Below, one piece after another: positions 63,385-64,000 of a stretch of 64,000 nucleotides of DNA. The stretch covers positions 128,001 through 192,000 of IMG/VR virus record IMGVR_UViG_3300030117_007612; one strand, 5' to 3'. The notes under the pieces were generated by a model. It searched no databases. It was not told where the DNA came from and was given only the letters and a program-made list of their open reading frames with translations. Every line of letters begins with the position of its first letter. Position 1 is the stretch's first letter. The DNA is from a virus. Taxonomy: Duplodnaviria; Caudoviricetes. Both the position numbers and the translations under genes were made by a program.

Positions 63385-63529
63385 CGAATGCATAGAAGCA
63401 CACTATAATATGATTAAGCACCATAGAAGACAGATTATTGATCTCTGTAGGCGCAAGGCTACTGAAGATAGAATTTGCATGGAGTGTTTCGATTTTGATA
63501 TTATCGGCAAAAAGAAGAGCGACAAATGA
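63356..63529 (+). CDS. Hypothetical protein
   Basis: SD AGGAGG before ATG 63356. Confidence 0.6.
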   Translation: MSPDMEKLIDECIEAHYNMIKHHRRQIIDLCRRKATEDRICMECFDFDIIGKKKSDK

Positions 63530-63699
63530 AAATTGGCGATTTGGTACACAGTATTCACGATCATTCGCACCGTGGAATTGTGCTGCAAGTAAGCAGATCC
63601 GAAGAACTTGTTGTTCGTGTTAAATGGTTTGATGGCGACGAGACACTTGAATATGGTAGGATGCTAGAGCATGTTGAGGTTTTGAGTGAAAGTCGGTGA
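63526..63699 (+). CDS. MKIGDLV mini-gene 1 (57 aa, not in ORF track)
   Basis: MKIGDLVHSIHDHSHRGIVLQVSRSEELVVRVKWFDGDETLEYGRMLEHVEVLSESR. Confidence 0.8.
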   Translation: MKIGDLVHSIHDHSHRGIVLQVSRSEELVVRVKWFDGDETLEYGRMLEHVEVLSESR

Positions 63700-63844
63700 T
63701 TTAGTCAAGAATAAAGTCACGGGACAAATTTGTGTTGTCATTTGGGTATATGAAACATATGGTACACATTTTAGACTATCCGGGTTTCCTTCCAATCAAG
63801 TATTCACATCGCGCCCATGGGAGATTATAAGTGAAGGTGGGTGA
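63686..63844 (+). CDS. MKVGDLV mini-gene 2 (52 aa, not in ORF track)
   Basis: GTG start; MKVGDLVKNKVTGQICVVIWVYETYGTHFRLSGFPSNQVFTSRPWEIISEGG. Confidence 0.8.
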   Translation: MKVGDLVKNKVTGQICVVIWVYETYGTHFRLSGFPSNQVFTSRPWEIISEGG

Positions 63845-64000
63845 TTTGGTGAGGGTAAGAAATGATCCTGATGGGTGGCTTGGCATTGGTATCGTTCTTG
63901 ATATTCTTCCGACCACCAAACAAGTTAAAGTGCATTGGGTTGATGAGTGGGAAGAGTGTCCGATTGATTGGAGCACCATGTGGACATTGGAGGTTATAAG
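63831..64000 (+). CDS. MKVGDLV mini-gene 3 (3' truncated, not in ORF track)
   Basis: GTG start; MKVGDLVRVRNDPDGWLGIGIVLDILPTTKQVKVHWVDEWEECPIDWSTMWTLEVI.. Confidence 0.8.
   Translation, partial: MKVGDLVRVRNDPDGWLGIGIVLDILPTTKQVKVHWVDEWEECPIDWSTMWTLEVI

Follow-up and report, generated by a model that had tools for sequence, protein, structure and literature searches.

Small SH3/KOW-like barrel genes joined by a two-frame coding junction show cassette-like variation in marine T4-like phages

At the end of a 64,000-nt stretch of viral DNA (the window), small genes with unrelated middles follow one another through a nearly constant boundary, in which the tail of one gene and the start of the next are written in overlapping frames. 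A sequence-only reading of the window had proposed that this boundary could act as a recombination handle for an expandable library of small proteins, in the manner of an integron array. The locus raises two questions: whether units are gained, lost and exchanged at the boundary in related phages, and whether its conservation reflects recombination or the coding demands placed on it.

Small gene arrays in a marine myovirus

The window covers bases 128001-192000 of a 203,368-bp record (42% G+C, CheckV completeness 100%). The record is the genome of an uncultured marine T4-like myovirus of ~200 kb, assigned to that group on the basis of its terminase and baseplate genes; the nearest deposited terminases are those of Flavobacterium phage immuto (46.6% identity) and Microcystis phage Mel-JY01 (43.5%). 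Searches of deposited phages returned zero blastn matches to the array region and zero tblastn matches to one unit at E<=0.01, and therefore no cultured phage with the unit family was identified.

Three consecutive, overlapping ORFs of the MKVGDLV type occupy the + strand at 63526-64000, and their starts, tails and overlaps are as first described. Unit A1 (63526-63699, 57 aa) begins at an ATG that overlaps the TGA of a preceding 72-aa ORF (ATGA). A2 (63686-63844, 52 aa) and A3 (63831-64000, 60 aa) begin at GTG codons, and A3 is truncated by the end of the window, its true end lying at window-equivalent position 64013. All three N-termini read M-K-(I/V)-G-D-L-V, the C-termini are EVLSESR, EIISEGG and EVISESR, respectively, and the A1/A2 and A2/A3 overlaps are 14 nt each. 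The start of a third copy was correctly recognized at the window end, where GGAGGTTATAAG is located at 63989-64000; the initial 14 nt of the A3|A4 junction lie at 63987-64000 (+ strand), and the GTG of unit A4 starts at 64000.

The expectation that the array runs on beyond 64000 was borne out by the whole genome. A profile made from the copies and iterated on a six-frame translation recovered ~27 family members with a unit size of 50-70 aa. They form three array blocks (genome 191526-192835, 196220-197124 and 197195-198470), within the first of which the window stops, together with stand-alone copies at genome 187553, 190933, 193294 and 194584 and divergent P-G-D-L-V copies at genome 1876-3911 and 20924. 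Just past the window, array A also holds a 41-aa hydrophobic ORF (L001:6353-6478; genome 192353-192478) which overlaps the preceding unit, is kept in L013-L016, and precedes a unit that matches the family weakly (MLRIGDLV...). Among the dispersed relatives proposed within the window, two are clear, matching the HMM built here for the family (E ~1e-13 to 1e-15): a 62-aa gene (FNLGDLV...; 62945-63133, +) and a 79-aa ORF (PKVGDLI...EILSES; 59565-59804, +) that is kept in relatives with a dN/dS of 0.01. The remaining candidates did not hold up as well. With hhalign probabilities of 69% and 58%, the copies at 36739 and 44091 match only weakly, and the ORF at 50200 has the N-terminal motif alone in common (33%). 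This last ORF, which starts MKIGDL, follows a 523-aa ORF (48611-50182) judged from its sequence to be a GroEL-like chaperonin.

The 62-aa stand-alone gene is the first past a sigma-70-like promoter (TTGATT, 17 nt, TATATT; 62929-62957, +), a consensus match within a repeated TATATTATA motif that is likely to mark the start of the array A transcript. Between promoter and array lie two small ORFs from outside the family (84 aa and 72 aa; 63130-63529, +) that are kept in relatives and form part of the operon-like run of array A. Sigma-70-like matches precede each array (L001 4929, 10592 and 11147), and weaker consensus matches also occur inside arrays. The array promoters sit inside a composite motif of ~90 nt, present on the + strand in 19 copies concentrated in an accessory region that spans the contig ends (window 30886, 59849 and 62952; genome 1016-8572 and 187849-202811). 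It comprises up to three TTGAC(A) boxes, an extended -10 (TGnTATATTATA) and GGAG, with GTATAGAAAGGAGAAA and an ATG after the -10, and looks like the promoter-early stem-loop (PeSL) cassettes of T4-type phages.

We modeled A1 and A2, whose middles are unrelated, with AlphaFold2. Both models, built on the same family alignment, are five-strand barrels (pLDDT 89 and 93), in agreement with the SH3/KOW-like pattern noted initially, and predict an SH3/KOW-like barrel with confidence for these two units. They resemble the KOW, Tudor and SH3 barrels (Spt5/NusG KOW, UvrD/PcrA, CarD and PsaE; among phage proteins, Pfam DUF2158 and DUF4314) in having five strands, a start of the G-D-x-V type and G-I-V in the second strand. 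Structure matches (VIA Z) were found to Spt5 KOW (7.8), PsaE (7.4), CarD and UvrD/PcrA Tudor-like domains (~7) and NusG KOW (6.6-6.7), with an rmsd of about 2 A across 50-54 residues and Z values in a range that the tool calls common. Foldseek returned PDB matches only at E>=0.03, while the BFVD matches are small uncharacterised phage proteins, and profile matches in PDB to NusG/Spt5 KOW were weak (E 0.015-0.08). Judged on the models, the fold matches are generic, and the barrel shape says nothing on function. Unlike members of the named families, the units reach no Pfam family at its curated cut-off, KOW (PF00467) included, and no function is transferable; the anti-defence or host-takeover role suggested in the first reading is not supported by these comparisons. 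PHROGs contained no usable family for them, and the ESM Atlas only unnamed clusters, the nearest named proteins there, DsrB and R67 DHFR, falling under the reliable score. Unit isoelectric points range from 4.1 to 11.3, and therefore no charge property is common to them.

The family is large. Public data contain 3583 clusters at 50% identity (E<=1e-3), another search gave 631 matches, and literature searches on the motif and on tandem SH3-like phage families returned no earlier description of family or junction. Among the matches listed, 204 of the 252 homologues of <=80 aa carry a tail of the overlap type. With ~27 copies in this genome, 3583 public clusters, and 590 units in the 66 loci described below, the pattern is well above chance. 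The database set also includes fused forms and long tandem-repeat proteins of 3-9 copies (P0121, P0144, P0188, P0191, P0205, P0265 and P0234): P0121 and P0144 are in-frame two-unit fusions, and P0188, P0191 and P0265 are multi-repeat proteins. A related KVGD-type domain is thus also found as an intragenic repeat.

A junction read in two frames

Alignment on the start codon defines a conserved 33-nt block, from -13 to +20, with the consensus TTGGAGGTGATCA GTG AAA GTC GGT GAT yTG GT. On the + strand of the window it lies at 63673-63705 (A1|A2) and 63818-63850 (A2|A3). Of the two junction strings given originally, the second is exact at 63820-63844 and the first was misplaced by one base, its actual position being 63676-63699. 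Reading junctions in both frames confirmed their dual coding. The upstream frame encodes L-E-V-I-S-E-S-R-stop, which forms the final strand and the tail of unit n, and the downstream frame a (G/A)TG start and M-K-V-G-D-L-V of unit n+1. A GGAGG Shine-Dalgarno (SD) sequence ends ~8 nt 5' of the start codon, and the TGA of the upstream unit sits within the Gly-Asp codons GGT GAT. At A1|A2 the SD-like element is GAGG (the full GGAGG is present at most junctions), the start codon is GTG and is followed by codons for K-V-G-D, and GGTGAT contains the TGA of the upstream unit.

The block is the sole DNA similarity between units. Across 58 distinct junctions, pairwise nucleotide identity averages 0.78 in the block versus 0.28, approximately chance, in unit bodies. 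In the 66 loci, 231 of 274 overlapping neighbour pairs overlap by exactly 14 nt. Sequence variants at the junction are matched in both frames: a GTG start goes with an S-E tail and an ATG start with an N-E tail, and CAA (Gln) in place of AAA puts Ala in the upstream tail. The x(E/A)x(R/G) tail is present in 193/215 units with another unit directly after them versus 51/298 without, and is therefore imposed by the start of the next gene and dispensable for the protein.

How much of this conservation do the two reading frames explain? The L-E-V-(I) strand and G-D-L-V are retained even in stand-alone copies, the GAG of the SD is accounted for by ribosome binding and the GGT codon of Gly4 by the stop codon, and the wobble positions of Leu6 and Val7 are free. 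Gly4 is GGT in 212/212 units with the 14-nt overlap, a value that holds partly by construction (the overlap requires a TGA in GGTGA), and relaxes to 175/234 in non-overlapped units against a genome background of 26%. On these grounds, conservation of the junction mostly reflects two-frame coding together with the ribosome-binding site. Val3 behaves differently. It is GTC at ~60% of junctions (for example, window 63692-63694) versus 17% genome-wide, a bias that the downstream frame does not explain; GTC yields CGG (Arg) as the terminal residue of the upstream unit, and the bias may come from a preference for Arg at this position or from DNA homogenisation. A conserved hairpin was sought at the 58 distinct junctions and none was found (mean fold z 0.04; no consensus structure from RNAalifold).

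A bacterial ribosome that ends at a stop codon can resume translation from a start codon located a few bases 5' of it, as described by the scanning model of reinitiation. The arrays have the layout of coupled operons, in which a gene stops no earlier than the next one starts and contains the SD of that next gene, and from their sequence appear to be gene runs built for coupled translation 3' of a sigma-70-like promoter.

Unit content among related phages

We collected 66 related loci by exact look-ups and by scanning for an anchor gene, a 296-aa zinc-finger-like gene directly downstream of the last array. All are metagenome contigs, many of them 185-196 kb long. Rather than a fixed gene set in a fixed order, the relatives vary in unit number, identity and order. 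The 590 units fall into 280 orthogroups, 180 of them singletons, and the same 7 kb upstream of the anchor contains from 0 to 20 units. At least 9 different neighbours are found on the left of the terminal unit beside the anchor, reversed orthogroup orders both occur (12-25 and 25-12; 7-32 and 32-7), duplicated orthogroups are present within arrays, and the A2 orthologue of L018 is in the distal array. With neighbours this changeable, complexes between particular adjacent units are unlikely.

Alignments of close genome pairs show gain, loss, replacement and reordering of units at the junction, as the first reading had anticipated. Between this genome and L013, which are 98.5% identical, a one-unit indel of 166 nt has its crossover within 21 nt of identity and has also switched the start of the next unit from GTG to ATG; in the same pair, three units here are swapped for one unrelated unit between two junctions. 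L009 and L010 are 99.4% identical over 12.25 kb and unrelated from 16 nt past the start codon of a unit. L038 and L039 (99.2-99.99% identical) differ by one additional unit of 176 nt, with 20 nt of junction common to both ends. The array in the window is itself affected. In the L009-L012 type of array A, an additional unit X stands between A1 and A2 and A3 is missing, the homology switch falling within the junction, and in L010 A2 is joined directly to the A4 orthologue at the A2|A3 junction. These alignments support cassette-like behaviour of the units.

The original description of the units as hypervariable is accurate for paralogues but not for orthologues, which are conserved. For the cores of 14 orthologous units compared between this genome and its 192-kb relative L009, pooled dN/dS is 0.12, and flanking genes, excluding a 309-aa gene, give similar values in the same comparison. 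These ratios indicate that orthologous units are real proteins under purifying selection. For this pair of genomes, individual units have dS values between 0.13 and 1.7, a spread expected of a mosaic. One unit of orthogroup 21 (L001:12113-12292; genome 198113-198292) is unlike every other in having a dN/dS of about 1.07 versus L009, at a dS of 0.13 and in a small sample.

Neighbouring genes vary as well. The space from tRNA-Lys (59954-60028) to tRNA-Met (60815-60891) holds an MgtC-like gene (60135-60815; its L013 orthologue has a precomputed match to PF02308) that is missing in L009 and L010, with ~780 nt gone at that site. In contigs L021 and L022, which are ~98% identical, an AAA_5 (MoxR-like) gene is swapped for two minus-strand genes (L021:4870-5928 versus L022:4814-5896), a case of further plasticity adjoining the arrays. 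A 113-aa ORF is found at 58043-58384; its orthologues have precomputed matches to PF26761 (Acb5), and the copy in the window had no match in a Pfam scan at E<=0.01.

Proposed recombination at the junction and competing explanations

The genome encodes a RecA/UvsX-like recombinase (27418-28596, +; PF00154, E 2.7e-35) and an SbcCD-like nuclease. No tyrosine integrase (PF00589) was found in the whole 203-kb genome by a search that matched all 14 control genomes, and no reverse transcriptase match (PF00078) was present. A diversity-generating retroelement was considered and ruled out by this second result and by the conservation of orthologues.

The explanation we favour, and hold to be likely on the sequence comparisons, is homologous recombination at the coding junction, an in-operon counterpart of the PeSL shuffling of T4-type phages that acts on small SH3/KOW-like barrels. 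The 33-nt block would serve as a short homology for the phage's own recombination system, the RecA/UvsX-like recombinase and SbcCD-like nuclease, and we infer that the RecA/UvsX-like enzyme drives the homology-based exchange. Exchange between copies of the junction, both inside a single genome and across genomes that infect the same cell, would delete, duplicate, replace or move units in frame, and each moved unit would arrive with working translation signals. Every product would be in frame and translatable because the block carries the stop, the ribosome-binding site and the start. Several observations weigh against this account. Conservation of the junction derives largely from two-frame coding and the ribosome-binding site, with free wobble at Leu6 and Val7; the exact runs that junctions share, with a median of 9-10 nt and a maximum of 24 nt within this genome, are short by the standards of efficient homologous recombination; and some contig orders could be assembly joins at the repeat.

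A stronger version holds that the junction has been selected as a 'plug-and-play' site, through which a marine phage clade freely recombines a population-wide library of thousands of small barrel binders. Single units would then be carried on circles or swapped between genomes infecting the same cell, would arrive in frame with their translation signals, and would make up a repertoire adapted to targets in host defence or takeover. We regard this as a tentative possibility that is more doubtful than not.

The opposite view, that the units are ordinary paralogues which arose by tandem duplication and divergence, parts from homologous exchange at the junction solely on whether the effect is selected. 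On this reading, which we think unlikely, the junction is kept for GDLV, LEV(I) and the SD, start and stop, and recombination is an unselected side effect. It draws on the same two-frame explanation of nucleotide conservation, on the retention of GDLV in stand-alone members with N-terminal extensions, on the duplicated orthogroups within arrays, and on the fact that no dedicated recombinase or DNA structure was found. It fits poorly with orthogroup order, neighbours and array membership that vary between relatives, with replacement by unrelated units in genomes that are 98.5-99.4% identical, with the mosaic dS, and with the excess of GTC at Val3. The junction may be under selection for recombination, or it may simply allow recombination to happen.

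Could the shuffling instead have been created by metagenome assembly, through misjoins at the repeated junction? The junction is repeated many times per genome, 3.6% of junction pairs have at least 20 identical bases, and every sequence compared is a metagenome contig. However, the L013-type order recurs in five assemblies made with different pipelines, some possibly from the same Tara sample, and the L009-type array A in five samples; the median common run of 10 nt is under the usual assembly k-mers; and unit sets differ regardless, with 280 orthogroups. Assembly error is unlikely as a general cause of shuffling, and that the pattern as such is an artefact seems very improbable.

Integron-like cassettes, moved by a site-specific recombinase acting on the junction as an attC-like site, would share with these arrays their cassette behaviour, their single direction from a putative upstream promoter and their single-unit indels. 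As a mechanism the integron analogy fails on the absence of a tyrosine integrase in a genome rated 100% complete, on a junction that has no conserved hairpin or other secondary structure, and on crossovers that fall anywhere in the common identity, as in homologous exchange; we give it almost no credence. Equally hard to credit is that the arrays are partly read as multi-domain proteins by a +1 ribosomal shift that fuses unit n to n+1, an idea prompted by the +1 relation of the downstream frame and by the fused and multi-repeat public proteins, since every internal unit retains a start codon of its own with a correctly spaced SD, known +1 shift signals are not apparent, and small indels explain the fused forms.

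Among described systems the closest is PeSL modular shuffling in T4-type phages, in which an intergenic block of ~100 bp combines a sigma-70-like early promoter with a stem-loop terminator, and mini-circles with one unit and one hybrid motif are excised (Arbiol et al. 2010 PMC2839356; Comeau et al. 2014 PMC4122927). In both cases a short conserved motif is repeated between small, function-unassigned genes where the genome of a T4-like myovirus is plastic, the motif bounds the indels and replacements that separate close relatives (here in aligned genome pairs) and also gives expression signals, and homologous recombination is the proposed agent. The junction described here differs in being a ~33-nt two-frame coding element with a stop, SD and start, which gives translation rather than transcription signals and contains neither stem-loop nor promoter, and the genes shuffled all belong to one protein family. 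PeSL-like promoter motifs occur in this genome as well, separately, between the arrays. Integron arrays are likewise one-directional runs of small units, with gain, loss and reordering of single units. Integron units are promoterless and expressed from one upstream promoter, for which the sigma-70-like matches ahead of each array are candidates here, alongside the weaker matches inside arrays. Unlike integrons, this system has no IntI integrase, attI or attC hairpins, its units are mutually homologous, and exchange fits homologous rather than site-specific recombination.

An older parallel is the modular theory of Susskind and Botstein (1978) and Botstein (1980), which reportedly invoked homologous linker sequences between phage modules. 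The linker idea, proposed for the functional modules of lambdoid phages, has been largely superseded by illegitimate recombination followed by selection. As in that theory, short conserved sequences at gene boundaries would allow homologous exchange of unrelated alleles; the difference is that the junction linker here is explicit, highly repeated and coding.

Phage genome plasticity of the PeSL kind was already known; the two-frame coding junction and the large unannotated family appear to be new to the literature searched. The arrays provide an unusually clean natural case, of a kind seldom seen so clearly, of phage genes exchanged via a short conserved boundary sequence, and suggest that one block can combine translation coupling with recombination homology, so that new genes would be expressed wherever they are inserted. 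If the plug-and-play reading were true, the junction would match an integron in function while being recombinase-free. Neither Pfam nor PHROGs has a name for the family so defined, which comprises at least 3583 clusters at 50% identity and abounds in ocean viromes. Its members may perhaps act early, be dispensable, and use a shared scaffold to bind diverse host targets. If units do bind host proteins, the arrays would be a natural library on a 55-residue scaffold and an entry to the function of phage 'dark matter'.
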